Origin: a bacterium
GTDB lineage: Bacteria; Oederibacteriota; JAAXVQ01; JAUVAV01
Assembly: GCA_021108215.1 (NCBI GenBank)
Contig: JAIORK010000050.1
Span: forward strand, 10,498 to 74,497
Direction of reading: 5' to 3'
Length of the DNA: 64,000 nt
Under the pieces are notes generated by a model, which saw only the letters and a list, made by a program, of their open reading frames with translations, was not told where the DNA came from and made no database searches. Shown here in pieces: positions 3,815 to 40,486 of this stretch (its first letter is position 1; each line of letters starts with the position of its first letter). A program made the position numbers and the translations under genes.

Positions 3815-5053
3815 TTAAAATTCAAACTCTACTTCTGACAACCGTTTTTTAATTTCATCAATGACTTTTTTCTCATCCTCCGGTGTGGATGCATCAAAGG
3901 TGGCTGAAAACCGGACAAATGCACCGGCATCATCCCAGGGCACGGTTGAGATCAGTTTTTCACGTATCATAAATTGAGAAAACGCCTCTGCACTCGCAAA
4001 TGACTCGCCGCCTTTAATTCCCTTGGGAATCGGCATATATAAGTAGAAGGTTCCTTTCGGCTTTTCTGCCTTGAAGCCGACTGATTGCAAGGCTTCTGCC
4101 AACAGTCCTAAACGGCGGGAATACTTCTCTTTTGTTTTCTCTGTAATCTCCGGATGTTCCAGACAGTGAATACCAGCATATTGAATCGCCAAAAATTGCC
4201 CGGAATCATTGTTGTCTTTGACAGTTGCAAAAGCTTTCACAATTTTTTCGTTGCCGCATACAAACGCCAACCGCCAACCGGTCATATTGTAGGCTTTGGA
4301 TAGCGACTGAATGGCCACACCAACTTCTTTGGCACCGGAAACTGACAAAAAAGATAATGGCTTGACATCATCATAAACGAGTGCAGCATACGCTTCATCC
4401 GAGATAACGACCACACTGTTTTCTTTGGCAAACTTGATCACTTTTTCATAAAACGCAACAGTTGCCGCCCCACCGGTTGGATTATTGGGATAATTGATAT
4501 AAAACAGCTTGGCTTTTTGTTTCTGCTCTTTTGTCAGCGAATCCAAATCAGGCAAAAAATCATTTTCTTTGGTTAATGGCAAATTCACCACTTCACCGCC
4601 CAAACCTTTTGCCTGCGACCCAAGCACCGGGTATCCCGGCACGGTCATGATGGTAATGTCACCTGGATTGATAAAAGCGGACGGCATCAAGGCCAACGCC
4701 GGTTTGGAGCCAATGGCATGAACCACTTCGTTTACCGGGTCCAAATCCTCCACGCCAAAAACAGTCTTCATATATTTAGCAGCAGCATCTTTAAAATCCT
4801 GACAACCATTATCAGCATAACCGCGATTCCCGGGTTTCTTAGCATTTTCAAACAACGCGTCAACCACTTCCGGTTCAGCCATCCAATCCGGCTCACCCAC
4901 ACCCATATCAATCAATGCCACACCCGGATTCGCTTCCATGACAGCTTTTTTAGCACGTTTGATTTTTTCGAATTTATAGATAACCGTCGATTTCCCAAAC
5001 TGATTCCCACCGAGTCTTTCCGCGATCAATCCTTGAATATAAGTTTCCGACAT
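3815..5053 (-). CDS. dapL: PLP-dependent aminotransferase, LL-diaminopimelate aminotransferase (DapL)-like
   Basis: 412 aa class-I aminotransferase with NYPNNPTG and SLSKAYNMTGWRLAF (PLP lysine) motifs. Length and motifs fit the DapL family. Confidence 0.6.
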   Translation of the reverse strand: MSETYIQGLIAERLGGNQFGKSTVIYKFEKIKRAKKAVMEANPGVALIDMGVGEPDWMAEPEVVDALFENAKKPGNRGYADNGCQDFKDAAAKYMKTVFGVEDLDPVNEVVHAIGSKPALALMPSAFINPGDITIMTVPGYPVLGSQAKGLGGEVVNLPLTKENDFLPDLDSLTKEQKQKAKLFYINYPNNPTGGAATVAFYEKVIKFAKENSVVVISDEAYAALVYDDVKPLSFLSVSGAKEVGVAIQSLSKAYNMTGWRLAFVCGNEKIVKAFATVKDNNDSGQFLAIQYAGIHCLEHPEITEKTKEKYSRRLGLLAEALQSVGFKAEKPKGTFYLYMPIPKGIKGGESFASAEAFSQFMIREKLISTVPWDDAGAFVRFSATFDASTPEDEKKVIDEIKKRLSEVEFEF

Positions 5054-5227: not shown

Positions 5228-8200
5228 TTGTCCTATCATTTATTATCGGAGGACAATGTGAAAAAAATCCATTTTGTATATCGCATCCCAATTTGTCTTT
5301 TCAGCTTCTTTTTACTTTCTGTCACCCTTGGTCACGCCGCCACCTATACTGTCACTAACACCAATGATAGCGGCGGCGGTTCATTCAGACAGGCTGTGCT
5401 GGATGCCAACGCTAATGGAGGCCCGGATGTTATTACCTTTACCGGCGGCTTGGGAACCATTACGGTTTCTTCCTATATTCCTGTCAATGATACGGTATTA
5501 ATGAACGGCAATGGTACCCAGGTTGTTTCCGGCGGCACAACAACCAATTTGGTTTATTTTGCAGCGGGTAGTGACGGCAGTACGATTACCGGGATGGCGT
5601 TTATTCAATCTTTGGGTTACGGTCTCGGGATTTATTCTAGTTGTAATAAAGTCTACAACTGCCGGTTTGGAACAGACTGGAGCGATACTCCCGGCTTAGG
5701 TAATAACTTTGGTCTATCTGTTAGTGGCAGTCATTACAATGATATTGGCGGAACAACAGGTGGTGAAAAAAACGTCATGTCCGGTAATAACAATACCGGC
5801 TTAGGTGTAAATAATGCTATTGGTACTCGTATCCGCGGTAACCATATTGGAACGAACAGCGCCGGAACAGCCGCTCTGGCCAATCCAACCGGACTCCAGT
5901 TATACGGCAACACGATGATGACTATGGTTGGCGGCAACCGTTCTTCCGGTGAAGGTAATTTGATTGCCGGCAACAGCAGTTATGGAGTTTATTTTAATAA
6001 TACTGAAGTATTTGGGAATACTCTTGTTGGAAATACCATTGGTGTTCAATTAACTCAGGATGCCGAGATTCCTAATCAGGTAGGTATGATGCTATACAAA
6101 TCATCAGGAAATCACATTGGTCTTCCAACCTCAGGCTATGAAAACATTATTGCCGGAAGCAATTCCTATGGCCTCTGGCTTTGGGTCGGCAGCACTTCTA
6201 CAGATCCGCATCCAGCTTGGAATCGTATCCAGAACAACTATATTGGTATCTGCCCTGATACCGGTAATGTCTATCCTAATGTTAATGGTATCTTTCTAAA
6301 TTATGCCGACAGCAATTTAATTGGTGGTGATTATGCCGCCGGTGAAGGCAATGTGATTTCCGGTAATACCTATCACGGTATTTATATGCTGCAAGGCATG
6401 GGCAATACTATTTGCGGTAATTTTATTGGCACTAATTTATCAGGCGCTGCTGAAGCTCATAATTCCGGTTGCGGCATTCGTATTGCTGCCGGCCATGGTA
6501 ATTTAATCGGCGGTCAGAATATCGGAGGAGCTTTCCGTTATGGCAATCTCATCTCCGGTAATTATCAACATGGTATTTCTTTTGAACGGGAAATTGTCGG
6601 TGAGCAACAGCGGGAGAATAAAATTTACGGCAACTGGATTGGCTTAAATCTAACCGGCACCGCTACGATTCCCAATTCGCAAAGTGGTATCAATTTTTAT
6701 ATTAATGCCGGTGATAATTATATCGGTACCTCGAATAGTGATTACCGCAATGTTATCTCCGGTAATGGCTGGTACGGCTTTCGCTCGCACTATGGTTTTA
6801 ATAATAAGGTTTATGGCAACTATATCGGAACCGACATTAATGGAACTGCTTTTCTTCCCAATAGCAATGACGCCCTTTACTGGACGCACAGTTACCGTAA
6901 CCGTATCGGCGGCACCTCTGCCGGCGAAGGAAATATTATTTGCGGTTCCAGCACCAACGGCATTTATTTATCCGATAGTTTTGAAAATACAATTATTGCC
7001 AATTATATCGGCACCTTGGCAAACACAACTGTTACCACTCCAAATCTGACCAATGGTATTTATCTGACTGATTGGAGTCATACCAACTGGATCGGCCTGA
7101 AAGCATCCAATTTGGGCAATATGGTTGCCGGACCGGATAATGGTATTCAAATTGCCCATGACAATGCTGATAGTGTTATGCTCAGCACCAATACAATTTG
7201 TGCCTTCAGCACAGCGGGTATTACCTTGGCCGCCGGCGCCAATAACAACCAGTCGGTTCCTGCCATCACTTCTCACGATGACGATTGGCTCTACGGCACC
7301 TGTGTCAGTGGTGATGATGTGATTGAAGTATTTGTCGCCGGCCGGGGCGAAGGCAGTTCCGGCGGCAGTTTAACTTTTGTCGGACGAACCACTGCCATCA
7401 TCGAAACCTCATGGGGACTTAATGCCCCCGGTCGCTTTAGCACCAGTGGCGATATGTTTACCGCCATTGCAACCAATGGTATGAACAGTTCCGCCTTTGC
7501 CGCAAACTATATGATCCCCTATCCATCAACACCAACCTTTACCGTAACCACCACTCCCAGTATGACACCAACACCTACCATCACATCCACCATCACCCGG
7601 ACTGCCACACCTTCCACCACCATAACGTATACAAGCACCCCAAGCGCAACACCGACGACTACAATAACCAGCACCGCCAGCATGACACCGACTGCGACCA
7701 TAACATCTACAACAACGCCAACCGCCACCGTCACACCAACCAGTACCATCACAATCACCAACACGCCGGGTGACACTCCGACGTTCACTGCCACACCAAC
7801 AATCACGCCAAGCGCCACACCAAGCACAACAGCAACACCAACCCTGACCATAACCCTTACAGCAACTCCGGGTGACACCAGTACCTATACTGCCACCCCG
7901 AGCATAACAGTGACCGTCACGCCAACTGCCACCGCATCCATTACCCGAACCGGTTCCCCCACGCCTACGATCACACCGACGTCTACGGCATCACCTTTTG
8001 TGACCGCCACCCCCACTGCGTCCATTACCCTGACCGCCGTTGTGACCAATACATTTACCACCTCACCGGTTATCAACCCGCCACAAACAAATAAAACAAT
8101 CCCGGCTTTCCCCAACCCTGCAAAAGACACCGTGTTTTTTAGTGTGCCTGAGTTCACGTCCGGGCAATTAAAAATTATTGTTTATAATGTTAACAGCGAG

Positions 8201-11747: not shown

Positions 11748-12587
11748 TCATTTATTTATTATTCCGTTTTTTCGCTGCTCCTCTTCCCGCACGGTCTGAC
11801 AAGCCCGGGCAATGGCAGCACCCCAAAAAATAGTCAAGGAAGAATAATAAACCCACAGCAAAAGCGCCACCAATGACCGCGAGGACCCATAAAAAACGAC
11901 CATGGGATTGAAGACCCAATATTTTTCCAAACCATATTTTCCAATCTCAAATAAACAGGCTGCCCCCAGGGCACCCATAACCGCATCCTGCCACCGCACC
12001 TCGGTATCCGGCGCCCATTTGTACAGCAAAACAAACATGAGCACGGCAACAAAAAACGTAGTCGCAGCCTCAATCAATTTCCACTTAATCATAATGGACT
12101 GGGTCAGCAATGCAAAGAGTGTGCTCACAAAAAATGAAGTGACCAGAACGGTTGAAACGACCAGCATCATGCCCAATGGCACTGTCTGTTTTTTTAAAAA
12201 TGCCGGCCACTTCCGCTGTTTGCGCGGCGCAACCTGCCAAATCTTATTGAGCACATCATGAATATGGGCAAACACGATGATTGCCGCAAAAAAAGCAATC
12301 AGCAATCCAAAAAAAGTGGAAACCGGACCCTGAAAAATCCCCAGGGTGGTGCGCGTGGTCAGCGAATTAAAGATATCCCGGGCCTGAACAGTCATCATCG
12401 AATTTGCCTGGTGAAGAATCACATCCCGCGGTCCCCGCCCCGCAACATCTGCCAGCCATTGCATAAAAAAGGCGAATGGCGCCAGTGCCATCAATGAAAA
12501 AAAAGCCAGCCCGGCAGCATCAATGAATAATCGTTTTTTAAAAAGTGTGCTCAAAGAGCTGCGCACAATTTTCAGCCATAGAAGCAT
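11748..12587 (-). CDS. YihY/BrkB (virulence factor BrkB / RNase BN-like) family membrane protein
   Basis: FIDAAGLAFFSLMALAPF signature near the N-terminus and multiple TM helices. Confidence 0.8.
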   Translation of the reverse strand: MLLWLKIVRSSLSTLFKKRLFIDAAGLAFFSLMALAPFAFFMQWLADVAGRGPRDVILHQANSMMTVQARDIFNSLTTRTTLGIFQGPVSTFFGLLIAFFAAIIVFAHIHDVLNKIWQVAPRKQRKWPAFLKKQTVPLGMMLVVSTVLVTSFFVSTLFALLTQSIMIKWKLIEAATTFFVAVLMFVLLYKWAPDTEVRWQDAVMGALGAACLFEIGKYGLEKYWVFNPMVVFYGSSRSLVALLLWVYYSSLTIFWGAAIARACQTVREEEQRKNGIINK

Positions 12588-19825: not shown

Positions 19826-19954
19826 GTAGGGAACGGTTTCAAACCGTTCCCTACAGACCCGTCCCCATATCAAATAAGTGTGTTATCTGAATATTCTAAC
19901 TCAGGTAGCGAATCACTGCTTAATTCCTTATTTCAAATACGTCCCCTATCACGC
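19826..19954. repeat. palindromic repeat element B (second copy of the element-A family)
   Basis: gtagggaacggtttcaaaccgttccctac (19826-19854) has the same 12-bp arms as 2701-2728. ttatttcaaatacgtcccc at 19929-19947 matches 2660-2680. Short tatcacgccccctatcac tandem repeats follow. Confidence 0.6.
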
Positions 19955-20252
19955 CCCCTATCACACGCCTTCGCCCACGTCTCCCGCCCCGCTTAGTGAT
20001 CGCAACGTATTGGCATTTCCCAATCCGGGCAACAAGCATATTTATTTTCAACTTCAAACTTCGGCCGGCTCTGAAATTGAAATTAATTTCTATAATTTTA
20101 CCGGTGAGCGGATAGCGATATTAAGACAGCGTTTGGATCAAACCCGGATACTTCCCTGGAATTGTGAGAATATCGCACCGGGAGTTTATATGGCTGTGAT
20201 TAAGCTAGATGGCCGGATATGGGAGAAGCTTAAAATCAGCATCGTCAGATAA
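19878..20252 (+). pseudogene. orphan T9SS C-terminal sorting domain (remnant of a T9SS cargo gene lacking its cargo part)
   Basis: The ORF encodes only ...LAFPNPGNKHIYFQLQTSAGSEIEINFYNFTGERIAILRQRLDQTRILPWNCENIAPGVYMAVIKLDGRIWEKLKISIVR, a T9SS C-terminal domain homologous to the C-termini of 5228..8341 and 20465..22375. No signal peptide or functional domain lies upstream, and the upstream sequence is repeat element B. Confidence 0.6.
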
Positions 20253-20294
20253 AGGAACTTGGGAGATCGTACGCGTCTCTTTAATATTTTTTAG

Positions 20295-20372
20295 AAATAA
20301 AAAACCCCGCACCTTTCGGTGCAGGGTTTTTTATTTCTGGCGAGGCCGAGTAGACGAGTTTCGCACCTGGGG
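20295..20372. repeat. R1: bidirectional terminator hairpin plus tRNA-Asp-3'-end-like segment (tggcgaggccgagtagacgagtttc)
   Basis: aaaaaaccccgcacctttcggtgcagggttttttatttctggcgaggccgagtagacgagtttcgcac. The same architecture recurs at 23527-23600 and 26510-26560. Confidence 0.65.
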
Positions 20373-20464
20373 CCGGACCTGTCCGGCGAATGCCGCATGA
20401 AATTGGCGGCTTAGTGTTGTCCCTGCCAAATCTAATGTGTCAGGTAAATACTGTCTCTGTACAT

Positions 20465-22375
20465 TTAATGTACAATTGCAAGCTTAAGTACTTCGAATTT
20501 TTTCCCATTTTTATTTATTTTCGCGATATAAAAGCCCGGGGCCAACTCTTGACTATCCAAGATAATTACCTGTCCGTGCCCTGCTAATAACTCCTCAGTT
20601 ACAGTAATAGTTTTTTCTCCGGACATATTGTAAATCACAATCTCTATACTAGCAGCATTATCCAGATGCATCAAAAATTTAACTTCATCGCTAGCAGGAT
20701 TGGGATAAGCTAATACTTTTTTCCCGTTCAAATCCAACCCAGCCAAAGCATTGATAGGAGTTGTGGTTAAAGTTATAGTCATTGAGGCCTCAATTATAGT
20801 AACTGTAGGACTTGCGGTTGGTGTATTTGTAATGGTTGCTGTAGGTGTAGCTGTCAAAGTAGGCGTATATGTTTGAGTTGCAGTATTAGTATTAGTATTA
20901 GTAACTGTGGGTGCAACATTGGTAACTATCTGGGTATTTGAAAAAACTGATGTATTATTCGTTCCGCCTTTTGCAGTTGCGATTACAGTTTCACCATCTA
21001 AACAACTAGTACCTGGATTAAAATTCCAGAAACCTGAACCATCAGCAGTCGTAGAACCCACAAAACGCAGAGTATCACTACCATCTGTAGTTACAAATAC
21101 TTCAATATAATCATTAGCACCTGAGATGCCGCTGACCACAATGTTTTCTGCAGCATAATTGATCACAGGTGCAGTACCGGGTGCACTACTGCTATCTACA
21201 ATCATATTCGTGCAAGCTACCATGGTATTTCCATTACTCTCATTATTCGTAGAAATTACTACTGACCCATCTCTAAACCAAATAGCACTGCCAGTAGCAC
21301 TCGAAAACAAATTGCCATTACCATTAGTTAATCCAATATAATTATTCGCTCCACCATATATATCAATTGCATAAGCCAGCGCTGTGGTACTACCATCCGG
21401 CAAAATACCAAAACGATTGTTAACCAAGGTATTGTATTGAGCTAAATTGGAAGCATTGATAGCGCTTTGGCGCATAAGTATCCCCTTACCAAAACTATTA
21501 CCTTCGATCCAGATTCCATCACTACCACCTACAAAAATTGACCAATTTCCATTGGAAATCACTGCATCTCCAGTAGCATTGATTGAAAAATAATTGCCTA
21601 CAAACCGATTGTTATCTCCAACATTTGTAGTAGCAATGTAAATACCATTACTAGAATTACCTGCTATTATATTTCCAGCACCAGCTACTAACCCACCAAC
21701 CAATAAATCACTAACCGTTGCATTAATATGTATGCCCGTTGCTTGTACTCCTAAACCAGCGCTCCCATCAATGTTGGTTCCAATATAATTCCCGCAAATA
21801 GAATTCGAATCAGACTGTCCCCATAAATAAATCCCAGCATTAATATTACAAGAAATTACATTTCGTTGCGCTGCAATCAATCCGCCAATAATATTATTTG
21901 GACTGGAACGAAAATATATACCGTTTGAATTACTTTGATCTGTTGCGCTATTATAATCCGTGCCGATCAAACAACCCGTAATAGTTATTCCAGATATTCC
22001 AGTAAAATTTGTCTGAATTGCATTCTCACTATTAATCAGCACTAAATCATTAATAATTGAATTACTACTACCAGTATCAAAATATAATAATGTTACTCCT
22101 GAAGAAGTTCCGGTTGACTGAATTGTGGTTCCGTAACCTTCTATAATCACTTGATCAGATATAGATAAATCAGCAGTCAATGTGATTGGACCAGATACAT
22201 TAAAATCAATTGTATCAGTTACACTTGTGCTGAGATCCGAAAAACCTATAGCTTCGCGCAAGGAACCTGTTCCATCATTTGCTGTACTAGTAACTGTGTA
22301 AGTGAGAGCAGAAACTTCAGAGACAATTAAAATCAATACAAAAATTGATACTACAAATCGAAATACTTTTTTCAT
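20465..22375 (-). CDS. T9SS-secreted beta-helix surface protein (paralog of 5228..8341)
   Basis: Signal peptide, G-N-x-I-G-x-N beta-helix repeats, a T/N/P-rich linker (TVTNTNTNTATQTYTPTLTATPTATITNTPTASPTVT), and a C-terminal T9SS domain (KVLAYPNPASDEVKF...GFYIAKINKNGKKFEVLKLAIVH). Confidence 0.85.
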   Translation of the reverse strand: MKKVFRFVVSIFVLILIVSEVSALTYTVTSTANDGTGSLREAIGFSDLSTSVTDTIDFNVSGPITLTADLSISDQVIIEGYGTTIQSTGTSSGVTLLYFDTGSSNSIINDLVLINSENAIQTNFTGISGITITGCLIGTDYNSATDQSNSNGIYFRSSPNNIIGGLIAAQRNVISCNINAGIYLWGQSDSNSICGNYIGTNIDGSAGLGVQATGIHINATVSDLLVGGLVAGAGNIIAGNSSNGIYIATTNVGDNNRFVGNYFSINATGDAVISNGNWSIFVGGSDGIWIEGNSFGKGILMRQSAINASNLAQYNTLVNNRFGILPDGSTTALAYAIDIYGGANNYIGLTNGNGNLFSSATGSAIWFRDGSVVISTNNESNGNTMVACTNMIVDSSSAPGTAPVINYAAENIVVSGISGANDYIEVFVTTDGSDTLRFVGSTTADGSGFWNFNPGTSCLDGETVIATAKGGTNNTSVFSNTQIVTNVAPTVTNTNTNTATQTYTPTLTATPTATITNTPTASPTVTIIEASMTITLTTTPINALAGLDLNGKKVLAYPNPASDEVKFLMHLDNAASIEIVIYNMSGEKTITVTEELLAGHGQVIILDSQELAPGFYIAKINKNGKKFEVLKLAIVH

Positions 22376-22529
22376 TTATTCACTCCTTAATTTTGCTAAT
22401 TAATATCCATAGGTTAACACCATTTAAATTAAATTACGATTAAAAACATTTCGACCCCTGTTATAATCGGACAAAACTAAATAGTAGAAATCTGCTATGC
22501 TAAGAGCCTCAAAATCAGGAGACAAAACA

Positions 22530-22621
22530 GTGAGCAAAGGCAAAAAATGGACATCGGAAGAAAAAATGGCAGCAGTTATGGAAGGGCTAAAAGGTCGGCC
22601 AGCTCGTGCTAGGGTCGAGTA
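22530..22621 (+). pseudogene. possible IS3-family-like transposase OrfA N-terminal remnant (frameshifted, 30 codons)
   Basis: Frame 1 reads VSKGKKWTSEEK and continues in the -1 frame as MAAVMEGLKGRPARARVE*. Joined across the 5-A run at 22561-22565, KKWTSEEK-AAVMEGLKG resembles the HTH_Tnp_1 N-terminus of IS3-type OrfA. The call is weak and rests on recollection of the family. Confidence 0.25.
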
Positions 22622-23231
22622 GCCCAGAGGCATCTCACTTCCAGGCTCTCACAGAACCGTACTTAAATCTCTCAATTCATACGGCTCTTACTGTTCGGCC
22701 ATTATGATTAACATAATGACTTGCTTCATGACTAAAGTTCCTCCGGTTTTTCAACAGTTGACAATAGTCACCAAGCTGAACAGTTCGGTCCCGCAGCGAA
22801 ACTTCCATTACAGAAGCTTCTTCACTACTACGAACCGATCGCCCCTATATCATGCCTTGGTACTCACAACCTAACACCGTGCTACGATGCTTGGATGGCT
22901 CCCTTTACATCATGATATAGGTTCCCACGTTCTCCGTAAAAGCCCGAACAGAGCTCATGCCACCTCTATGCCGGATGCCGCACAGCCAGTAAACACGTTT
23001 CCGCTATGCTTGTCCCAAGATTCCAGCAACACCTTGGTTTTGACATCATCATTTTGACTTTCGACACTTTATCAGTGGTTCACTTTCGTTCATCTTCTCT
23101 GTTCATACCTCACCTTGACGCTCACCACCATGTCTTTTGAACACAGCAGCTCAAGGCGGTTTGGCACCTGCTCGTGCAAGCCGATGCCGAAGGACCGACC
23201 CCTTCATCTCTTACGAAACTTCGTGGCACAC
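22618..23231 (-). mobile_element. ORF-less group II intron candidate (or 3' intron fragment) with canonical domain V
   Basis: The minus-strand sequence GAGCCGTAT-GAATT-GAGA-GATTT-AA-GTACGGTTC (plus 22653-22686) reproduces the domain V architecture. That comprises a 9-bp lower stem with the AGC triad and G-U pairs, a 2-nt bulge, a 5-bp upper stem and a GNRA loop (compare Ll.LtrB GAGCCGTATACTCCGAGAGGGGTACGTACGGTTCC). A D6-like helix AGCCTGGA...TCTGGGCT followed by AC lies 7 nt downstream. The candidate 5' GTGTG is at 23231. The 1.37-kb region 22376-23742 has no credible ORF. The boundaries are approximate. Confidence 0.6.
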
Positions 23232-23452
23232 TGCCGGAGTTCAAATGTTCAAATAACACTCCACTATTCCTACCATTTCAAAACGCTAATTTCCAGATAA
23301 TAAAATCCGTTCAATCTTCGGATGCTCAAATACCAGCACCAAGCAACGCTTCCCGATTGGAGGTCGCAATTTGCGATCTCCAATTTTCTGTTTCTTGCTT
23401 GGGTAACCAGAACATAAAATCTCCAGCCAGCTCAATTTAAATTGACTCGATA

Positions 23453-23600
23453 ATTCACGAAAATCGAACAATAGAGCAGTTGAGCAGCAGACCGCCCTAA
23501 ACCACGTAGGGTTTAGGGCTTCAGAAATAAAAACCCCAGTCCTTATTGGACTGGGGTTTTTATTTCTGGCGGGGCCGAGTAGACGAGTTTCACAACTGGT
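23453..23600. repeat. R2: roughly 110-nt repeat (acgaacaatagagcagttgagcag...accgccctaaaccacgtagggtttagggcttcag), terminator hairpin and tRNA-Asp-3'-like segment
   Basis: Near-identical to 26451-26560 over about 110 nt. The hairpin is aaaaaccccagtccttattggactggggttttt and the tail is tggcggggccgagtagacgagtttc. Confidence 0.7.
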
Positions 23601-23742
23601 GCCAAGAAAAACCGGCTGCTCAAATTAGCTTTTACATATAGTGATCGTCCATTATTATAGACTGAATTAATTATTTTTATTTTATTTCATTGAAATAAAA
23701 CCTACACAAACCTAAAAAACCGATTTTCTCTCTAAGACTGCA

Positions 23743-25059
23743 TTATCGCCTCTCATGACGTTCGTTATCTTGCGGAGTAAGCGTAATGGTTTTATCATAA
23801 TCCGATAATAACTTCGAAATACCAATAGCTTGGATTTCTTCATTGGCAGCACCATCAAGATTTAATTGAAGCTGACAGTTATCACATTTGCGATCACAAA
23901 ATACCGGTTCATAAGAATCCGGCTCTTTATAGGTTGTAATAACACCTTCAAAATTACGAAGAATAACTTTGTTCGTAGACCAACTGATCAGATATTGAGG
24001 CATAACAGGTATTTTCCCTCCACCTCCAGGAGCATCGATAACGTAAGTAGGCACTGCAAAACCGCTGGTATGACCAATAAGATTTTCCATTATTTCCATA
24101 CCCTTGCCAACCGGTGTACGGAAATGATTTAATCCTTCGGCCAAATCACACTGATATAGATAATAAGGACGCACACGATTCTGTACGAGTTTATGCACTA
24201 ACCGCTTCATTATCCTTGGACAATCATTAACACCAGCTAAAAGTACTGATTGATTACCTAGTGGTATTCCGCTATCAGCCAATTTGGCCAATACTTCTTT
24301 AGAAGAATTGGTGATTTCTCTTGGATGATTAAAGTGCGTGTTTATCCAAAGCGGATGATGTTTTTTCAATATATTTACTAATTCATCGGTAATACGATAA
24401 GGCAAAACGACCGGCATACGTGTCCCTATCCGAATAACTTCTACATGGTCAATAGAACGCAATTCTGTCAAAATCCAATCGAGGTAATCATCACTTAACA
24501 TCAACGGATCACCACCGGAAAGCAATACATCACGCACTTGTGGTGTTCGGCGAATATAATCCAATCCTGCTTGAATGGTTTTACGATCAGGGATAAAATC
24601 AACATCCCCGACCTTTCTCTTTCTGGTGCAATGTCGGCAATACATCGAACACATATTGCTGATCAGAAAAAGAACACGATCAGGGTAACGATGCGTGATA
24701 CCCGGCGCAGGTGAATCTTTGTCTTCAGCCAAAGGATCATTCATGTCATACTGAACCTTTTCCAGTTCGTGAATAGAAGGAAAAGATTGCAAAAAAACAG
24801 GATCATTCTCAAGATCTGCTTTATCAATCAGCGATAAATAATAAGGTGTAATCGAAAGCGGAAATTTTTCCAGTGTTTCTTCCAAATCTTTTCTTTTTTC
24901 AGTGGTAAATCGAACATCCAGTAGCTTTTCAAACAAAGCAACCGAAGTAATGCGATGCTTTAATTGCCAACGCCAATCATTCCACTGATCAGTGGTATTC
25001 GTTTGATCAATCTTATTGGCAATCGTTTCCTGATGATTTGATAAATCTTTATTCGTCAT
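23743..25059 (-). CDS. kamA: lysine 2,3-aminomutase (radical SAM, KamA/AblA)
   Basis: 438 aa with [10 protein letters not shown] (CxxxCxxC) and the KamA-family motifs ([20 protein letters not shown]-terminal CDxxC region). Confidence 0.85.
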
Positions 25060-25069
25060 ATTTCATCCT

Positions 25070-25984
25070 TCATACTATAGTTTTATTCCAGATATTCATT
25101 GATTCCCAACCGGTTGGCATGCGGCAATTATTCACCAAGCGCCCGCCATAGCCATAACCCAATTTTGCAAAAGCAGCATTGATGCCAACAATAGGCGCAC
25201 GACAAAGTGTATAGTAATCAACAATTCCAAATACGTCCTTCAAAACCCGTTCAAGTTCTCCAAGCAAAACCAGCATCAAACCATGTCCACGATAGTCCGG
25301 ATCGGTTGCACAATCTGTTAATTCAGCTGTTTTTCGTCCATGATCGATTTCAGCTGAAGCACAAGCGATCATTTCATTTTTTTCGTTTTCAACAAACAAA
25401 AATAACGAATCCTTATTTTGAATATTTTGAGCAATCGTTGCCGGTTCCAAAGAAGATGGATAATCAGAAAATATTTTTTTGAGTAAGCCGCTCAATCCGG
25501 CGGCATCTTCTGTTTTGGCTATTTGCACATCAAAATCATTTTGTATCCGAGCCGGATCAATCACCGGTTTTGATTGAACAGATGTGACGATCTTATTTTG
25601 TTCACCTGCACGATCATCTTGCCCCCGATGGTCAGACAAAAAAAAAGACCAAATTACCGAGTCAAGATGACTCTTAAAAAAACCATTAATCTTCCCTTCT
25701 TTGACAAAACCTATTTCTTGCCAAGCTTGATCATCCCCCTGCGTGGTGTACACAATAATCTTTGAAAATACCAGATCAGCATTTGCAGAAGATACAGGCG
25801 GAGAACATTGAGCTTGTATATCAGCAATCGTCACACCATATAACTTCACACGCTCATTACGGGGATCAAAAACAGACTCAAAATCTTTTTGTCCAAACCG
25901 AATAGACATTGAAATCGTCTTTTTGCTATTGATTGCTTTTGGTGTACCAAATGCCTCGTGTAAATAATGTTGAAGTTCAAGCAT
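25070..25984 (-). CDS. ablB: GNAT acetyltransferase, beta-lysine N-acetyltransferase (AblB)-like
   Basis: 304 aa with a C-terminal GNAT fold (ACASAEIDHGRKTAELTDCATDPDYRGHGLMLVLLGELE). Its length and its adjacency to kamA match the ablA-ablB pairing used for N-epsilon-acetyl-beta-lysine synthesis. Confidence 0.6.
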   Translation of the reverse strand: MLELQHYLHEAFGTPKAINSKKTISMSIRFGQKDFESVFDPRNERVKLYGVTIADIQAQCSPPVSSANADLVFSKIIVYTTQGDDQAWQEIGFVKEGKINGFFKSHLDSVIWSFFLSDHRGQDDRAGEQNKIVTSVQSKPVIDPARIQNDFDVQIAKTEDAAGLSGLLKKIFSDYPSSLEPATIAQNIQNKDSLFLFVENEKNEMIACASAEIDHGRKTAELTDCATDPDYRGHGLMLVLLGELERVLKDVFGIVDYYTLCRAPIVGINAAFAKLGYGYGGRLVNNCRMPTGWESMNIWNKTIV

Positions 25985-26124
25985 AATTCTATTCCTTTTA
26001 CATCAATGCTTTTTTCACAGCATCTTGCGAAACTTTGTTCGTACTGAGTACATCTTCAACCGATTGATCAATCCGGTTGTGTTAAATTTTTGGGTGTGAA
26101 TTCATCTTAGAGCGCACACTGGTT

Positions 26125-26439
26125 ATGGAGCTACAAACTCATAACCCAAACGACGTGTACGCCATGAAAAGTGTATCACAAATAATCCAAAAACAAACTC
26201 ACCAACAGCTCAGAAACCGCACCCGTGAAAGTATCCAACCCGGAACGATCCAGGCTGTCTTTGCCCAAGAAATCAATTCCATTATCGGAGATGCTCTCAA
26301 TGCCCAATTGGTTGCTGAGCGGGATGCCGCCCTGGGCTGCGCTGCTTACGAACGCAAATCCGGGGCATCCCGCAACGGCTTCAAGTCAATCAAAGAAAAC
26401 CGGGGAGGTGTGGAGTTCCTCACGCCCACAATGCCTTAA
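26125..26439 (+). pseudogene. IS256-family transposase N-terminal fragment (truncated at repeat R3)
   Basis: ...LVAERDAALGCAAYERKSGASRNGFKSIKENRGGVEFLTPTMP* matches the IS256/mutator N-terminal signature (AERD..LG...YER...RNGY...G.I.L.VP). The ORF stops 12 nt before R3 begins, and no DDE domain follows. Confidence 0.6.
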
Positions 26440-26450
26440 AAAGCTCAAAA

Positions 26451-26556
26451 ACACGAACAATAGAGCAGTTGAGCAGTAGACCGCCCTAAACCACGTAGGG
26501 TTTAGGGCTTCAGAAATAAAAAACCCCACACCGAAAGGTGCGGGGGTTTTTATTTC
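26451..26556. repeat. R3: copy of the R2 repeat plus bidirectional terminator, immediately 3' of tRNA-Asp
   Basis: acgaacaatagagcagttgagcagtagaccgccctaaaccacgtagggtttagggcttcagaaataaaaaaccccacaccgaaaggtgcgggggtttttatttc. Confidence 0.7.
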
Positions 26557-26633
26557 TGGCGGGGTTGACGAGGCTCGAACTCGCGACCTCCTGCGTGACA
26601 GGCAGGCGCTCTAACCAACTGAGCTACAACCCC
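26557..26633 (-). tRNA. tRNA-Asp (anticodon GTC), CCA encoded
   Basis: The minus-strand sequence GGGGTTGTAGCTCAGTTGGTTAGAGCGCCTGCCTGTCACGCAGGAGGTCGCGAGTTCGAGCCTCGTCAACCCCGCCA folds as a cloverleaf: acceptor GGGGTTG/CAACCCC, anticodon stem CCTGC/GCAGG, loop CTGTCAC, T-loop TTCGAGC. Confidence 0.9.
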
Positions 26634-26766: not shown

Positions 26767-26843
26767 TGGTGGGCGAAACAGGACTCGAACCTGTGACCCC
26801 CTGCTTGTAAGGCAGGTGCTCTAACCAACTGAGCTATTCGCCC
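26767..26843 (-). tRNA. tRNA-Val (anticodon TAC), CCA encoded
   Basis: The minus-strand sequence GGGCGAATAGCTCAGTTGGTTAGAGCACCTGCCTTACAAGCAGGGGGTCACAGGTTCGAGTCCTGTTTCGCCCACCA has the anticodon loop CTTACAA. Confidence 0.9.
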
Positions 26844-27031
26844 AAAATTTTGCTTCACAAAATTTAGAGCAATTGAGCAACCAAAGGTTCAATTGCGGTC
26901 TATTGTTCAACTGCTCAATTTTCATGTAATATTATCCTGCCCAACAACTAAGGAAAAACAATAATACTAAAATTTCTTAACAAGTCAAGATTTTTTTCTT
27001 AAAAGTCACTGCCCTGTTATCCAGAGACTTT

Positions 27032-37944: not shown

Positions 37945-39516
37945 CTATTTAAATTTAATAACTCCGCCAATAACCACTTCACTGGAACTTCCATCATTTC
38001 TTTTATTCAGCCTATGCGTCTTTAAATACATTATCTTCCCACTTTCATCCATTCGCGTTCCCCATAATGCATTCGATCCAGATCCCCACATTAAATCACC
38101 TACCGTCTCATCCCCATAATCAGGATCAGCAGCATATTTTACTTTTTGAGGTGACCCGCCATACAATATTCTTGTTTTACAGTCTCCAAAATCATACTCA
38201 CTGACATCCCTCTGAAGTATCGTTTTCCCATCAGCTTGAACTTCATCGCCATCTGTCAGAACACCATAAAAAACCTCTTGATATGTTTTGGGAATAAAAT
38301 CCCCTCCCCCGCTTAAACTATATTCAGCATCCGCACTTAAAAACGTTGCAGTTGTATATGATGTTTTTTTACTTTTTCTTTTAACTTTTTTGTCGAATTC
38401 TTTAATTAGCCTATCAAATTCTGCATTTTTTATTTTTATTGTAAAATTCAAAATAAATCCAACCTCAAGTGTGGCTGTTCTGCCATCTGAATAATATCTC
38501 CAATCTGTATTTTTGGTCCAACCATTTATGATGCCCTCACCTGCTTTTAATTCCTTGATATTGATTTGATCACTTCTAATTTCCTCCCTATTTTCTTCCT
38601 CCGCTTCATCTTTTTTGACGCGGACATTTTTAGTATCCCTATATTTCCTGTTTTTTTTATTGATTTTCGTTGTAGCTTTTATAGCAATCTTGTGTTTCCC
38701 ATCATCTTCTTGTTCAATATCCCAATAATGTTTTAATATTTCGTTTCTTTTGAGTTTTATTGCCTTCACCACTTTTTTATCGATTGCAAGCTGGACATCA
38801 ACCTCTTTCTCCCAAGCTTTCTTCTTGGTCTCCGCTTTTACCATATCAACATATTCCCAACTTTTCCGGAAACCATTATAAGCTTTCAATAATATTTCAG
38901 TGTCACTATGTCCGGCGAGATCATACTTCATGGTCCATCTTTTCCATTTTTTGGGTTTGTTTTTTGTGTCCTCTATCCATTTTTTCTTACTTTCTATCAC
39001 CGCGACTCCTGCCGTGATATTATATTCTGTATTTTGCATAATTTTCGTAAAATCCCACTTATCTTCTTCTAAGCCACTATACTTATTATTAATTTGCATA
39101 ATCCCATAATCAGTTGATTCGACTTCTTTTCTTCTTGTTTTTGGATCAACAATCACTTTTCCGGTCTTATCTATTTTATAGTTTATTCCTTTATACACAT
39201 TGCCGTTTTCATCAAATTGCTGCCAACCACCGCTTTCATGGTATGCAATCACTTTCAGCATTTCGCTTGGTAAGCAGGATTTGGTTTTCTCAAACAATTG
39301 ATCAATTTCGGAATAACTCATATTTTTGTTGCTTTTATTCCGAAACATTTCAGCAATGATGTTTATTGATTCAGAAATAACTTGTTCATCAACCGGTGTT
39401 GTAATTCTTATATCAAAACCACTAGCATTGTTTATAAACAACGAGCTAAAAGTCATTAAGATCAATGTAATTACTTTTATATTAGTCGACGAATATGTCA
39501 TACGGGTCTCCATCAA
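37945..39516 (-). CDS. secreted protein with N-terminal lytic transglycosylase (SLT/lysozyme-like) domain, K/E-rich central region and unknown C-terminal domain
   Basis: A signal peptide (ITLILMTFSSLFINNASG). The SLT motifs are AYHESGGW (catalytic Glu-Ser), STDYGIMQIN, NITAGVAVI and LLKAYNGF. These are followed by about 150 aa of lysine- and glutamate-rich low-complexity sequence and a 150-aa Gly/Asp-rich C-terminal domain. Coding GC is about 35%. Confidence 0.65.
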   Translation of the reverse strand: MMETRMTYSSTNIKVITLILMTFSSLFINNASGFDIRITTPVDEQVISESINIIAEMFRNKSNKNMSYSEIDQLFEKTKSCLPSEMLKVIAYHESGGWQQFDENGNVYKGINYKIDKTGKVIVDPKTRRKEVESTDYGIMQINNKYSGLEEDKWDFTKIMQNTEYNITAGVAVIESKKKWIEDTKNKPKKWKRWTMKYDLAGHSDTEILLKAYNGFRKSWEYVDMVKAETKKKAWEKEVDVQLAIDKKVVKAIKLKRNEILKHYWDIEQEDDGKHKIAIKATTKINKKNRKYRDTKNVRVKKDEAEEENREEIRSDQINIKELKAGEGIINGWTKNTDWRYYSDGRTATLEVGFILNFTIKIKNAEFDRLIKEFDKKVKRKSKKTSYTTATFLSADAEYSLSGGGDFIPKTYQEVFYGVLTDGDEVQADGKTILQRDVSEYDFGDCKTRILYGGSPQKVKYAADPDYGDETVGDLMWGSGSNALWGTRMDESGKIMYLKTHRLNKRNDGSSSEVVIGGVIKFK

Positions 39517-40486
39517 TACTTATTCTTTTTAAAATATTTCCAGTTTCAACATCTAACACAACAACCTCACCGGATGTTGAGGAACTAACAAATATTTTCT
39601 TCCCACCATTAGATAGTCCAGCATTGTATCCTTTAAAACCCATCGAATATGTTTTTACAACAGTATGGTTACCAATATTAATCTTCGCCAATTGACCATC
39701 ACCCGCAACATATAAATAACCATCTTTCAGAATTGCTATTTTTCGAATTTTTTTAATGGTTTCCAATTGAATATGATCCATGCTTCCGTTTTTCGCATTA
39801 AAAACCACCAATCTATATTGACTTCTGGTTGTTTTATTATCGTATGGGTCATATTTATAGATAACCAAATAAATCGTTTCCTCATCTATAACGACAATAT
39901 CGTGAATACGCTCTCCTGCGGTGATATAAAACGTTTTCTCAATCTGGTCGGTTTGAGTTGATATCTTTTTCAAACAATTGTATTCCGCTGCATAAACATA
40001 CTTACCATCTTTTGTAATATCTAAAAATCCGGTTTCCAAACTATTTTTCAACAGTATTTTTATTTGTTTGTTTTTTTTCAGATCAAGCACAAATATCCCG
40101 GATGGATTAACATCATCCCAGGAAATAACACCAACATAAAGCTTTTGAACATCCGGAGCTATTACTGCTTTTGACAACCCCGGGGTTATAACCCCATCAT
40201 ACTCTATATCCCCAAGTTCTTTTAAGGAATGGCGGTCATGAATATTCACAAAAAGAGGATTAATGAAATAAAGCCTATCCCCATTCGCAACAATAATATG
40301 TGCCAATGTATGATTGAGCTTTGATTCCAAAATTTCATAATAATCATCCACACCAAACATCTGTACTGACATAGAATATCTTGTTGTTACTAAAAGTCGT
40401 TCATTTGGCTTTGCTGCTGAAACGGACACACTTGAACTAACTATCGTTAATAAAAAAAAGACAATTGCTATTCGAGAATATTTCAT
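39482..40486 (-). CDS. secreted YVTN-type beta-propeller protein
   Basis: A signal peptide and repeated YVTN/LVIVD-like blades (KKIFVSSSTSGEVVVLDVETGNILKRISIDGDPYDIFV, GYLYVAGDGQLAKINIGNHTVVKTY). AT-rich like its neighbour. Confidence 0.65.
   Translation of the reverse strand: MKYSRIAIVFFLLTIVSSSVSVSAAKPNERLLVTTRYSMSVQMFGVDDYYEILESKLNHTLAHIIVANGDRLYFINPLFVNIHDRHSLKELGDIEYDGVITPGLSKAVIAPDVQKLYVGVISWDDVNPSGIFVLDLKKNKQIKILLKNSLETGFLDITKDGKYVYAAEYNCLKKISTQTDQIEKTFYITAGERIHDIVVIDEETIYLVIYKYDPYDNKTTRSQYRLVVFNAKNGSMDHIQLETIKKIRKIAILKDGYLYVAGDGQLAKINIGNHTVVKTYSMGFKGYNAGLSNGGKKIFVSSSTSGEVVVLDVETGNILKRISIDGDPYDIFVD

Follow-up and report, generated by a model that had tools for sequence, protein, structure and literature searches.

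Do the three repeats beside a tRNA-Asp gene in this genome record successive insertions of DNA at that gene, or do they have another origin? In the 64-kb stretch of DNA that we analysed (the window), an initial annotation had described three repeats, R1, R2 and R3, as possible serial attachment-site (att) scars. This description stood in part: we found the shared-flank pattern, a displaced tRNA relic and cargo of outlying composition, but also no integrase, shared sequence that is mainly tRNA trailer, and hairpin centres that differ. The locus is a tRNA-Asp-linked insertion hotspot, and we give an even chance to the explanation that R1-R3 are copies of a module ending the tRNA unit, with two segments inserted successively at this eroded hotspot.

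The tRNA unit and the repeats

ARAGORN recognizes two real tRNAs in the window and no others; they form one unit, with a promoter-like site at 26988-26961. The unit and the repeats comprise the following features.

26895-26920, reverse strand: 26-nt block in the leader of tRNA-Val that repeats, in inverted orientation, the trailer blocks at 26459-26484 and 23470-23495
26767-26843, reverse strand: tRNA-Val (TAC), first gene of the two-tRNA unit
26557-26633, reverse strand: tRNA-Asp (GTC), acceptor stem GGGGTTG/CAACCCC
26511-26558, reverse strand: T3, palindromic intrinsic terminator directly 3′ of the tRNA-Asp CCA
26454-26508, reverse strand: R3 trailer, with hairpin H (26483-26508) and an octamer-repeat block (26454-26484)
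23567-23623, reverse strand: X2, tRNA-Asp 3′-half relic ending in CCAGTTGTGAAACTCGTCTACTCGGCCCCGCCA, preceded by the leader-like TTTGAGCAGC
23522-23568, reverse strand: T2, predicted terminator of ablB-ablA, with a 15-nt centre unrelated to T3
23465-23519, reverse strand: R2 trailer, with hairpin H (23494-23519) and an octamer-repeat block
20339-20400, reverse strand: X1, tRNA-Asp 3′-half relic ending in CCAGGTGCGAAACTCGTCTACTCGGCCTCGCCA
20293-20339, no strand assigned: T1, predicted bidirectional terminator between a T9SS gene and a convergent C-terminal-domain pseudogene

All three repeats, with their strong bidirectional hairpins, were recovered where they had been described. T1, T2 and T3 are paralogous 45-nt palindromic terminators, one in each of R1, R2 and R3, with arms of 21-22 nt that are 91-100% complementary and folding z-scores of -7 to -9. 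T3 (arms of 22 nt, 91% complementary, with an A-tract and a T-tract on both sides) begins at the base after the tRNA-Asp CCA, so R3 indeed abuts the genuine tRNA. The half-site GAAATAAAAACCCC, at up to one mismatch, has six matches in 64 kb, against 0.09 expected by chance, and all six are the arms of T1, T2 and T3. Today the three hairpins most likely act as Rho-independent terminators, a predicted role in which T3 would end the tRNA unit, T2 ablB-ablA, and T1 both the T9SS gene and the convergent transcript.

The near-identity reported between R2 and R3 was confirmed at 95-98% (23465-23537 versus 26454-26526). Their trailers differ by one substitution and have the second hairpin and a 30-nt block in common, and in total they share 8 nt of tRNA and about 103 nt of trailer, with homology stopping exactly at 26454, the start of a transposase stump. 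The related motif reported beyond tRNA-Val is the leader block, 88% complementary to 26459-26484. The octamer block occurs in this leader and also in the tRNA spacer of a close relative (L009), and is of host type, the kind found around tRNA genes in the clade. The regular spacing of about 3.1 kb did not hold up, as the intervals are 3229 and 2990 nt.

The repeats form a mosaic. X, a tail of ~40 nt that occupies in R1 and R2 the place of tRNA-Asp in R3, is common to R1 and R2 together with the left flank, while CCCCGCCA, the terminator flanks and 85 nt rightward are common to R2 and R3; R2 turns from R1-like to R3-like within the acceptor-strand bases. Both flanks of T2 and T3 are 98-100% identical, yet their centres are unrelated, and T1 corresponds to T3 in flipped orientation (94% identity in inverted alignment, 84% in direct alignment). 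The mismatched T2 centre and the flip of T1 are observations that no model explains well.

X and the loci of relatives

The tails of R1 and R2 are about 89% identical (20339-20374 versus 23567-23603) and had been said to mimic the 3′ end of the adjacent tRNA-Asp. They match this gene over only 8 contiguous nucleotides, CCCCGCCA, plus CTCGTC across a 5-nt indel, and the window's tRNA-Asp ends in CAACCCC, with compensating GGGGTTG on the 5′ strand, and so differs from the X tail. Once its last 8 nt are removed, X aligns to tRNA-Asp in free local alignment no better than shuffled sequence does. Derivation from tRNA-Asp is nevertheless supported by the last 12 nt of X, TCGGCCCCGCCA, which are identical to the 3′ end that tRNA-Asp has in the closest relatives (L009, L086 and L087). 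X consists of what is left of a T loop, 5 nt inserted where the T stem meets the acceptor stem, and an ancestral acceptor end.

Another FCPU426-group genome, L007, carries a relic, CCAGGTTCGAAACTCATCTATTCGGCCCTGCCA, 3.9 kb downstream of its tRNA-Asp. This relic has the same 5-nt insertion and an intact GGTTCGAAAC T-loop motif, and agrees with the L007 tRNA-Asp at 21 of 26 positions in a hand alignment with a single 6-7-nt deletion and a single 5-nt insertion allowed. The window and L007 versions of X share 78-82% identity, whereas the DNA upstream of X, the leader and the Val-Asp spacer are at shuffle level (0.58-0.62). Because of the 12-nt match to the sister lineages, and because the same relic persists in L007 well above neutral DNA, we regard X as an old tRNA-Asp 3′-half relic that is conserved across genera. 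In L007 it lies at the far edge of cargo that adjoins tRNA-Asp and is unrelated to the window's (a Y1 transposase, a metallophosphatase and a Phd/ParE pair). A diverged copy of the L007 tRNA-Asp trailer and terminator follows, and host-like trailer is found 3′ of both the tRNA and X.

We compared all seven relatives with sequence downstream of tRNA-Asp (L006, L007, L009, L010, L012, L086 and L087), and ablB-ablA, with the IS256 stump, is absent there from every one. T9SS genes also lie 3′ of tRNA-Asp in L006 and L010. L006 and L012 have a tandem second unit derived from tRNA-Asp, 220-310 nt downstream, which ends in the 3′ 20 nt of tRNA-Asp and a terminator with the same flanks and a different stem, and which has been kept as a structured tRNA-like RNA. 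L006 further contains an exact 38-nt direct repeat of the tRNA-Val 3′ half, a sequence pattern that suggests att-type events at tRNA genes in the clade. Three assemblies of the window's own species are identical at the locus and hence provide no empty-site or excision evidence.

The segments between the repeats

Between R3 and R2 lies segment A, the IS256 stump and ablB-ablA; between R2 and R1 lies segment B, which consists of 228 nt, an intron, a short putative ORF and the T9SS gene.

26164-26439, forward strand: N-terminal stump of an IS256-family (Transposase_mut) transposase, homologous to residues 1-77 of about 408
25070-25984, reverse strand: ablB, beta-lysine N-acetyltransferase (NCBIfam equivalog above cut-off; GC3 0.30)
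23743-25059, reverse strand: ablA/kamA, lysine 2,3-aminomutase (NCBIfam equivalog above cut-off; GC3 0.31)
22614-23236, reverse strand: ORF-less group II intron, 3′ end from the Rfam D5-D6 match, putative 5′ end at GTGTG
20465-22375, reverse strand: T9SS C-terminal sorting-domain protein, 636 aa (GC3 0.24, the window minimum)
19878-20252, forward strand: convergent ORF with a T9SS C-terminal domain only, probably a gene fragment

The cargo identities proposed earlier were upheld, the intron by two Rfam matches above gathering score. The transposase gene is truncated as had been noted, with its junction at 26454; the stump itself has no Pfam or NCBIfam match, and the complete proteins homologous to it, of 407-409 aa, belong to Transposase_mut. 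Mobile-element debris is present at both inner junctions. Both segments are compositional outliers, the cargo genes having GC3 values of 0.24-0.31 compared with a mean of 0.48 (sd 0.085) over the window. Segment A is an acquisition, and AblA homologues at 73-77% identity are spread across many phyla. Segment B is not clearly foreign, because tRNA-Asp is followed by T9SS genes in L006 and L010 as well. The T9SS orthologue of a sister species (81% nucleotide identity) is in another context, and homology ends at its stop codon, without X-T1. As the initial annotation stated, no integrase remains in the 64 kb: the roughly 40 large ORFs of the window, the gene table for ±10 kb and the L007 block include no tyrosine or serine recombinase. 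A REP-like repeat (19921-19961) overlaps the 5′ part of the convergent ORF.

Origin of the arrangement

A right flank common to R3 and R2 and a left flank common to R2 and R1 are expected of two successive insertions at one site. The module ending the tRNA-Val/tRNA-Asp unit would comprise the last tRNA-Asp bases and the 45-nt palindromic terminator, followed in R2 and R3 by the second hairpin and the octamer-repeat block, and X in R1 and R2 would be a 'displaced tDNA fragment', marking the far edge of a tRNA-adjacent insert. Segments A and B would have entered successively, in either order, through recombination inside this module, giving R3 as tRNA joined to the incoming right arm, R2 as X joined to that same arm (a complete 'attP-like' junction) and R1 as X joined to the original host flank. 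The recombinase may have been lost or have acted in trans, or the events may instead have been homologous crossovers of the Campbell type, with circularised DNA donated by a close relative; a circle fits well, because R2/R3 homology stops exactly at the truncated IS256 junction, as at a circle-closure joint. Among the observations against insertion, what R2 and R3 share is mostly tRNA trailer, whereas a typical att identity block in a tRNA shows the opposite, and host-like trailer follows both the L007 tRNA and X, which plain site-specific integration does not predict.

Tandem duplication of a tRNA-Asp unit, as in L006 and L012, accounts for much of the pattern without an integrase. A tandem unit with its terminator would have decayed to X, further duplication would have given R1, gene conversion would keep R2 and R3 alike, and cargo and mobile debris would have arrived later through IS activity, illegitimate recombination or homologous exchange, the repeats being by-products reused as terminators. 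The inclusion of trailer and terminator in the duplicated sequence of both the window and L007, the host-type octamer block and the lack of an integrase in either block fit such a history, and X, like a tRNA duplicate or pseudogene, derives from tRNA-Asp and keeps its trailer and terminator. However, X lacks the whole 5′ half and lies kilobases of cargo away from the tRNA, a covariance model of the L006/L012 unit finds no match in the window, and the T arm has changed differently in X and that unit. Local duplication also leaves unexplained why a dead fragment stays so well conserved amid saturated intergenic DNA, far above neutral sequence, and why X is always at the far edge of variable cargo, and it needs separate ad hoc events for the orderly left- and right-shared mosaic. 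We therefore regard it as possible but rather unlikely.

Conservation of X across genera would also be expected if X and the terminator were a functional RNA module, a tRNA-half-like 3′-UTR element or a small RNA ending in CCA, kept because of processing or binding that might, for example, stabilise or mark upstream mRNA 3′ ends, with the likeness to an att scar secondary. In three of three cases X is part of the 3′ UTR of the gene before it (about 130 nt beyond ablA, about 75 nt beyond the T9SS gene and about 15 nt beyond the L007 ParE-like gene); the leader-like TTGAGCAGC in R2 base-pairs with the trailer block around X-T2-H, an enclosure that mirrors the tRNA unit; and relatives did make a structured RNA from a tRNA-Asp copy. 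On the other hand, X has no match in Rfam, not even to the tRNA family, at E<=10, ARAGORN does not call it, and X has no convincing conserved helix, its internal feature being the direct repeat ACTCG-TCT-ACTCG. The four known copies of X are too few for covariation analysis, and a promoter-like site for an independent X transcript was not found. We consider this reading improbable. That the hairpins are unrelated terminators converged on an A-tract, a GC stem and a T-tract is scarcely credible: their stems differ, T2 especially, and terminator-only matches to unrelated phage DNA do occur, but the flank pair GAAATAAAAA/TTTTTATTTC is identical across the repeats and occurs at R1-R3 only, homology continues past the hairpins for 35-60 nt to one side and 70-85 nt to the other, and T1 and T3 are 94% identical as inverted copies. 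The flanking homology refutes convergence.

If successive insertion is correct, the locus would be an eroded, integrase-less version of a familiar tRNA-linked hotspot, with blocks of roughly 3 kb, which we judge equally likely to be right or wrong. The signature of a tDNA plus a displaced tDNA fragment, used by Islander, has been described together with a junction subsite J and damaged fragments (PMC4383910). As in tRNA-gene islands, including tandem arrays, an intact tRNA is here followed by 3′-end fragments in the same orientation that bound blocks of atypical, lineage-specific DNA; two serial blocks give the expected flank pattern, X is broken between T stem and acceptor stem, which is one of the known crossover subsites, and fragment damage is known there too (PMC4383910). 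Unlike in such islands, no block holds an integrase, block length is only some 3 kb, the fragment has degenerated heavily (8-12 nt exact, the rest with indels), and copy identity is mainly in trailer and terminator, with hairpin centres not conserved.

Xer-dependent IMEX elements and the pdif modules of Acinetobacter plasmids lack an integrase and use a host recombinase, with short, partly palindromic sites bounding small modules such as toxin-antitoxin pairs or metabolic genes. The window resembles these in its short conserved sites, small cargo, serial modules and lack of a recombinase gene in cis, but its site is tied to a tRNA 3′ end and terminator, and no 11-6-11 dif-like site was recognised by eye at the locus. 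The hairpins themselves resemble Rho-independent bidirectional terminators in having a perfect GC-rich stem between an A-tract and a T-tract and in their positions, which are where the tRNA unit, ablB-ablA and the T9SS gene end and where convergent genes meet; unlike ordinary terminators, they are paralogous copies with tens of nucleotides of conserved flank.

Arrangement of the repeats at the tRNA-Asp gene

The source organism is a member of the candidate division FCPU426 group, in which the order POR-GNAT-tRNA-Val-tRNA-Asp is conserved. All relevant genes of the locus lie on the minus strand, and its features are listed accordingly, in order of descending coordinates. R1, R2 and R3 denote the three repeat copies, and T1, T2 and T3 their palindromic terminators. 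X1 and X2 are the tails of about 40 nt on the tRNA side of the terminator in R1 and R2, and H is a second hairpin.

Features of the repeat locus
26988-26961, minus: promoter-like site ahead of tRNA-Val
26843-26767, minus: tRNA-Val
26633-26557, minus: tRNA-Asp
26558-26511, minus: terminator T3, immediately 3′ of the tRNA-Asp CCA
26508-26483, minus: hairpin H of R3 (26 nt), after T3
lower end at 26454, minus: 30-nt block of octamer repeats in R3, after H
26164-26439, plus: IS256-family transposase stump, antisense to the tRNA unit
25984-25070, minus: ablB
25059-23743, minus: ablA/kamA, followed by about 130 nt of AT-rich DNA up to X2
23623-23567, minus: X2
23568-23522, minus: terminator T2
lower end at 23465, minus: second copy of H and block, in R2, followed by 228 nt of unknown origin
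about 23236-22614, minus: group II intron without ORF (about 620 nt)
between the intron and the T9SS gene, plus: short unverified ORF (VSKGKKW...)
22375-20465, minus: T9SS gene
20400-20339, minus: X1
20339-20293: terminator T1, facing the end (20252) of a convergent CTD-only ORF

The three repeats reported in the initial annotation are real: the half-site GAAATAAAAACCCC occurs six times in the window, solely as the arms of T1-T3, where 0.09 occurrences are expected. These arms are 21-22 nt long, are 91-100% complementary, have A and T tracts beside the stems, and fold with z-scores of -7 to -9 relative to shuffled sequences. Each terminator has the GC-rich stem-loop and T-run of a Rho-independent terminator on both strands, and each stands at the end of a unit, after tRNA-Asp (T3), ablA (T2) or the T9SS gene (T1). 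Whatever their origin, they most probably serve today to end transcription of the tRNA unit, ablB-ablA and the T9SS gene.

On the tRNA side, a stretch of about 37 nt is common to R1 and R2 (about 89% identity). The homology between R2 and R3 comprises CCCCGCCA, the two terminator flanks and a further 85 nt on the opposite side, and is broken by one substitution and a single 1-nt indel. The repeats form a mosaic: R3 has the tRNA on its left and terminator, H and block on its right, R2 has X on its left and the same right side as R3, and R1 has X on its left and unique host DNA on its right. The switch within R2 from R1-like to R3-like sequence falls within the acceptor-strand bases. Two further properties are unexplained. 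The 15-nt centre of T2 is unrelated to that of T3 despite flanks that are 98-100% identical, and T1 (20293-20339) is a flipped T3 (26511-26557), matching it at 94% as an inverted copy and at 84% as a direct one. Three assemblies of the species, compared as a check on strain polymorphism, are identical at R1-R3.

The 30-nt block is of host type: the tRNA leader of the window contains an inverted copy, the Val-Asp spacer of another compared locus (L009) has a similar 22-mer, and GARCAGNN tracts with octamer periodicity are found around tRNA genes throughout the clade.

Positions of GARCAGNN tracts
window: 26454-26484, 23465-23495 and 26895-26920
L012: 19300-19450
L007: 12310-12350
L087: 10850-10890
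L009: about 6073-6094

Together, the window's leader and trailer copies of the block constitute an inverted repeat of 26 nt (88%) around tRNA-Val, tRNA-Asp, T3 and H, and these copies may act as a processing stem or a protein-binding array.

Ancestry and conservation of the X tails

X1 and X2 follow the intact tRNA-Asp gene on its own strand, in the manner of the cognate 3′ tDNA fragments of tRNA-linked islands, and each terminates in ..GGCC(C/T)CGCCA. The tails had been described as mimicking the T-stem and acceptor end of the adjacent tRNA-Asp. With respect to the resident gene the likeness is smaller than claimed: only CCCCGCCA (8 nt) is contiguous, and without these last 8 nt the unanchored local alignment score is at shuffle level. 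Once relatives are included, however, it rises above chance. In L086, L087 and L009 the tRNA-Asp gene ends in CTCGTCGGCCCCGCCA, which X2 reproduces without change in its final 12 nt, and the first two of these loci come from the closest relatives by identity of the neighbouring GNAT gene (79% and 75%, respectively). Since the acceptor stem of the window's tRNA-Asp instead pairs CAACCCC with GGGGTTG, X retains the older acceptor sequence. A gapped match reaches about 24 nt, via CTCGTC and on into a remnant of the T-loop, if a 5-nt insertion is allowed where the T stem meets the acceptor stem. A by-eye alignment extending to the anticodon stem was dropped, because free local alignment is not significant past the last 8-13 nt.

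X is not recognized as a tRNA gene or pseudogene by covariance model or ARAGORN: neither RF00005 nor any other Rfam family matches it even at E<=10, and ARAGORN finds the two real tRNAs in the window and none at X. The exact X 22-mer is absent from genome contigs and from viral contigs, and a degenerate pattern likewise finds nothing in the latter. The one match of the 22-mer in metagenome contigs is in L004, a soil-type high-GC contig. There (142-175, minus strand), GAACTCGTCTACTCGGCCCCGCCA is identical to X2 over 24 nt and includes the same TACTC insertion; upstream, within a short context, lies ..TCGTCACGAGAGGT.. with GTCACG, like a tRNA-Asp anticodon loop.

The tRNA origin of X is seen clearly in L007, the locus of an FCPU426-group metagenome-assembled genome whose GNAT is only 65% identical to that of the window. 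Here, CCAGGTTCGAAACTCATCTATTCGGCCCTGCCA is found 3.9 kb downstream of tRNA-Asp; this is the element seen in the window, again with the 5-nt insertion, and its T-loop, GGTTCGAAAC, is still recognizable. It is followed by a diverged copy of the trailer and terminator of L007's own tRNA-Asp. The DNA between tRNA-Asp and X in L007 is unrelated to the window's cargo, and encodes an IS200-like Y1 transposase flanked by repeats of its own, a metallophosphatase and a Phd/ParE pair. X is 78-82% identical between the window and L007, while identity in the tRNA leader, in the Val-Asp spacer and in the 60 nt that precede X is at shuffle level (0.58-0.62); X is therefore either under selection or moving horizontally. 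This cross-genus conservation is the one mildly surprising feature of the locus, and X is no recent local accident. Contigs of closer relatives, found via GNAT, AblA and T9SS homologues, were too short or broken at the tRNAs, and extension of the sequence past the window contributed little. All three repeats are related by descent, and their source is the 3′ end of tRNA-Asp with its trailer.

Two other loci of FCPU426-group genomes, L006 and L012, have a tandem second unit after tRNA-Asp, in which the last 20 nt of tRNA-Asp are followed by a terminator with the same flanks and a different stem.

tRNA-Asp-derived structured RNAs (about 150 nt), directly after tRNA-Asp and its terminator
L006: 12376-12525
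L012: 19622-19768

In this RNA the acceptor-like stem ends in GCCA, a 14-nt hairpin is inserted into the loop of the T arm, and the other arms differ in sequence and keep their pairing. The RNA has its own terminator. It matches no Rfam family, and a covariance model of the unit finds no match in the window or the other loci; it may be an undescribed tRNA-like RNA. L006 also contains an exact 38-nt direct repeat (11846-11883 and 11990-12027) of the tRNA-Val 3′ half, from anticodon stem to CCA, with a gap of only 106 nt between the gene and the downstream copy, an att-type duplication that encloses almost nothing.

Content of the two intervals

The intervals between repeats are 3.0 and 3.2 kb long, within the 2-200 kb range that the Islander criteria (PMC4383910) set for islands in tRNA genes, and mobile-element debris occurs at both inner junctions. 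Segment A, between R3 and R2, carries the IS256 stump and ablB-ablA. The annotation of the latter pair, for the synthesis of N-epsilon-acetyl-beta-lysine, is confirmed at equivalog level by TIGR03820 (783 bits, cut-off 525) and TIGR03827 (215.7 bits, cut-off 205.1), and the genes are adjacent. Segment A is clearly an insertion: none of the seven relatives with sequence downstream of tRNA-Asp has ablB-ablA there, homologues of AblA (73-77% identity) occur in many scattered phyla of bacteria and archaea, and GC3 is low (0.31 for ablA and 0.30 for ablB; window mean 0.48, sd 0.085). The transposase fragment itself has no Pfam or NCBIfam match; its assignment is borne out by the homologues P0247 (409 aa) and P0259 (407 aa), which match the Mutator-family transposase domain Transposase_mut, PF00872, at 1e-73 and 1e-64, and in an exhaustive HMMER search it aligns to homologue residues 1-77 only.

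Segment B, between R2 and R1, is less clear as an insertion. Its T9SS gene, correctly identified in that the protein carries the sorting domain, shows the window's lowest GC3 (0.24). Its orthologue in a sister species (81% nucleotide identity) has different surroundings; the homology runs up to the stop codon and no further, and X-T1 is lacking there. T9SS-domain genes are also found 3′ of tRNA-Asp in L006 and L010. The group II intron scores above the gathering threshold for both RF00029 (57.8 bits) and RF01999 (81 bits), and its ORF is missing, leaving a 13-codon remnant in domain 4. Targeting of the terminator by a class C intron is not supported, as the inferred 5′ end lies about 230 nt from R2 and not directly behind the terminator. 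The ORF VSKGKKW... was considered as an IS3 OrfA fragment and matches no Pfam or NCBIfam family.

Elsewhere in the window, positions 37945-40486 form a second compositional outlier, with two ORFs of GC3 0.31 and 0.28, one without a Pfam match and the other weakly PorZ/beta-propeller-like; this is probably another acquired patch. At about 15934, a methyltransferase gene lacks 19 nt relative to L001 and L002, metagenome assemblies that are otherwise 99.9% identical, reflecting either a strain-level frameshift or an assembly difference.

Origin of the array

The mosaic is exactly the pattern that two successive insertions at one attachment module would leave (B-O-P′, P-O-P′, P-O-B′). For tRNA-linked islands, an intact tRNA gene with a displaced fragment, tandem forms, a junction subsite and damaged fragments have all been described (PMC4383910). 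Furthermore, the R2/R3 homology ends on the R3 side exactly at the truncated IS256 gene, and on the R2 side continues into other DNA, a trace expected of a circularised fragment that recombined in Campbell fashion within the terminator, H and block. The most likely history, to which we give an even chance, is serial insertion by recombination within the module of tRNA end and terminator, which could have been site-specific or homologous. The initial annotation had linked such repeats to tyrosine-integrase integration into a tRNA and proposed an eroded tandem island or a recombination hotspot. Insertion at a tRNA hotspot stands, and the statement that no integrase remains proved correct: Pfam reveals no recombinase in the interval ORFs, in about 40 large window ORFs or in the L007 block, nor does the gene table for ±10 kb list one, so that neither interval has the integrase expected of each member of a tandem of tDNA islands. 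We do not accept the integrase account as proposed, because no recombinase was found and because the R2/R3 identity is centred on the trailer: it continues about 103 nt past the tRNA, into a block of host type. The host-like trailer after both tRNA and X in L007, the tandem unit of L006 and L012, the T2 centre and the T1 flip count against it as well.

The main rival, which we rate as less likely, is that the tRNA unit was duplicated in tandem and the second copy decayed, with unrelated insertions afterwards. The plain tandem second unit of L006 and L012, evolved into a structured tRNA-like RNA, makes such an origin of X credible. It is also conceivable, and in our view improbable, that X and the tRNA-end/terminator module serve a trans-acting cargo-capture system of FCPU426-group bacteria as its recognition site. 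A chromosomal recombinase, or an RNA-guided or HUH-type enzyme, would then load and unload small integrase-less modules 3′ of tRNA-Asp, such as ablB-ablA, toxin-antitoxin pairs and surface proteins; its use of the site would keep X conserved across genera, and R2 would be a complete, reconstituted attachment site. A search of phages and plasmids with the R2 module gave only chance matches at the level of terminators.

At least one clear acquisition at this tRNA-linked hotspot is delimited by the repeats, and X, the relic at the boundary, is conserved between genera. The locus adds a further case to a known class, that of eroded, integrase-less arrays of tRNA-linked islets. It shows a route by which an osmolyte operon (ablB-ablA) and a surface-protein gene reached a tRNA-adjacent site in a poorly known candidate phylum, and X, with the degenerate pattern CCAGNTNNGAAACTCRTCTAYTCGGCCYYGCCA, provides a 33-40-nt marker for tracing the hotspot through related genomes. 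If X is an active site and not a fossil, it points to integrase-less module exchange at a tRNA gene; if inactive, the locus is a textbook-type eroded islet whose boundary repeats were retained as terminators.

Several known repeat classes were considered. An integron or attC array was rejected: R″/R′ boxes (RYYYAAC ... GTTRRRY) and, in a complete integron, an IntI gene are expected, whereas direct reading of the sequence shows no such boxes in the terminators and no integrase was found. Hairpin H (GCCCTAAAC..GTTTAGGGC) merely resembles attC boxes, with 7-mers that do not fit and a length of 26 nt. With Xer-dependent modules such as IMEX and pdif in mind, no conserved XerD-type arm of a dif-like site (11-6-11 bp, XerC/XerD) was seen by eye in X or the terminators. 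A MITE reading was also rejected, as was REP/BIME with RAYT, given only three copies within 6.3 kb of the 64-kb window and no Y1_Tnp gene in the window. A different REP-like repeat (..CCTTATTTCAAATACGTCCCC..) occurs in the window at 2654-2694 and 19921-19961, and in the sister-species contig L089 at 417-448, 2507-2538, 2965-2996, 4058-4086 and 6661-6692, with several of these five copies beside two Y1 (IS200-like) transposase genes. One of the window copies, 330 nt away from T1, falls within the 5′ portion of the CTD-only ORF.
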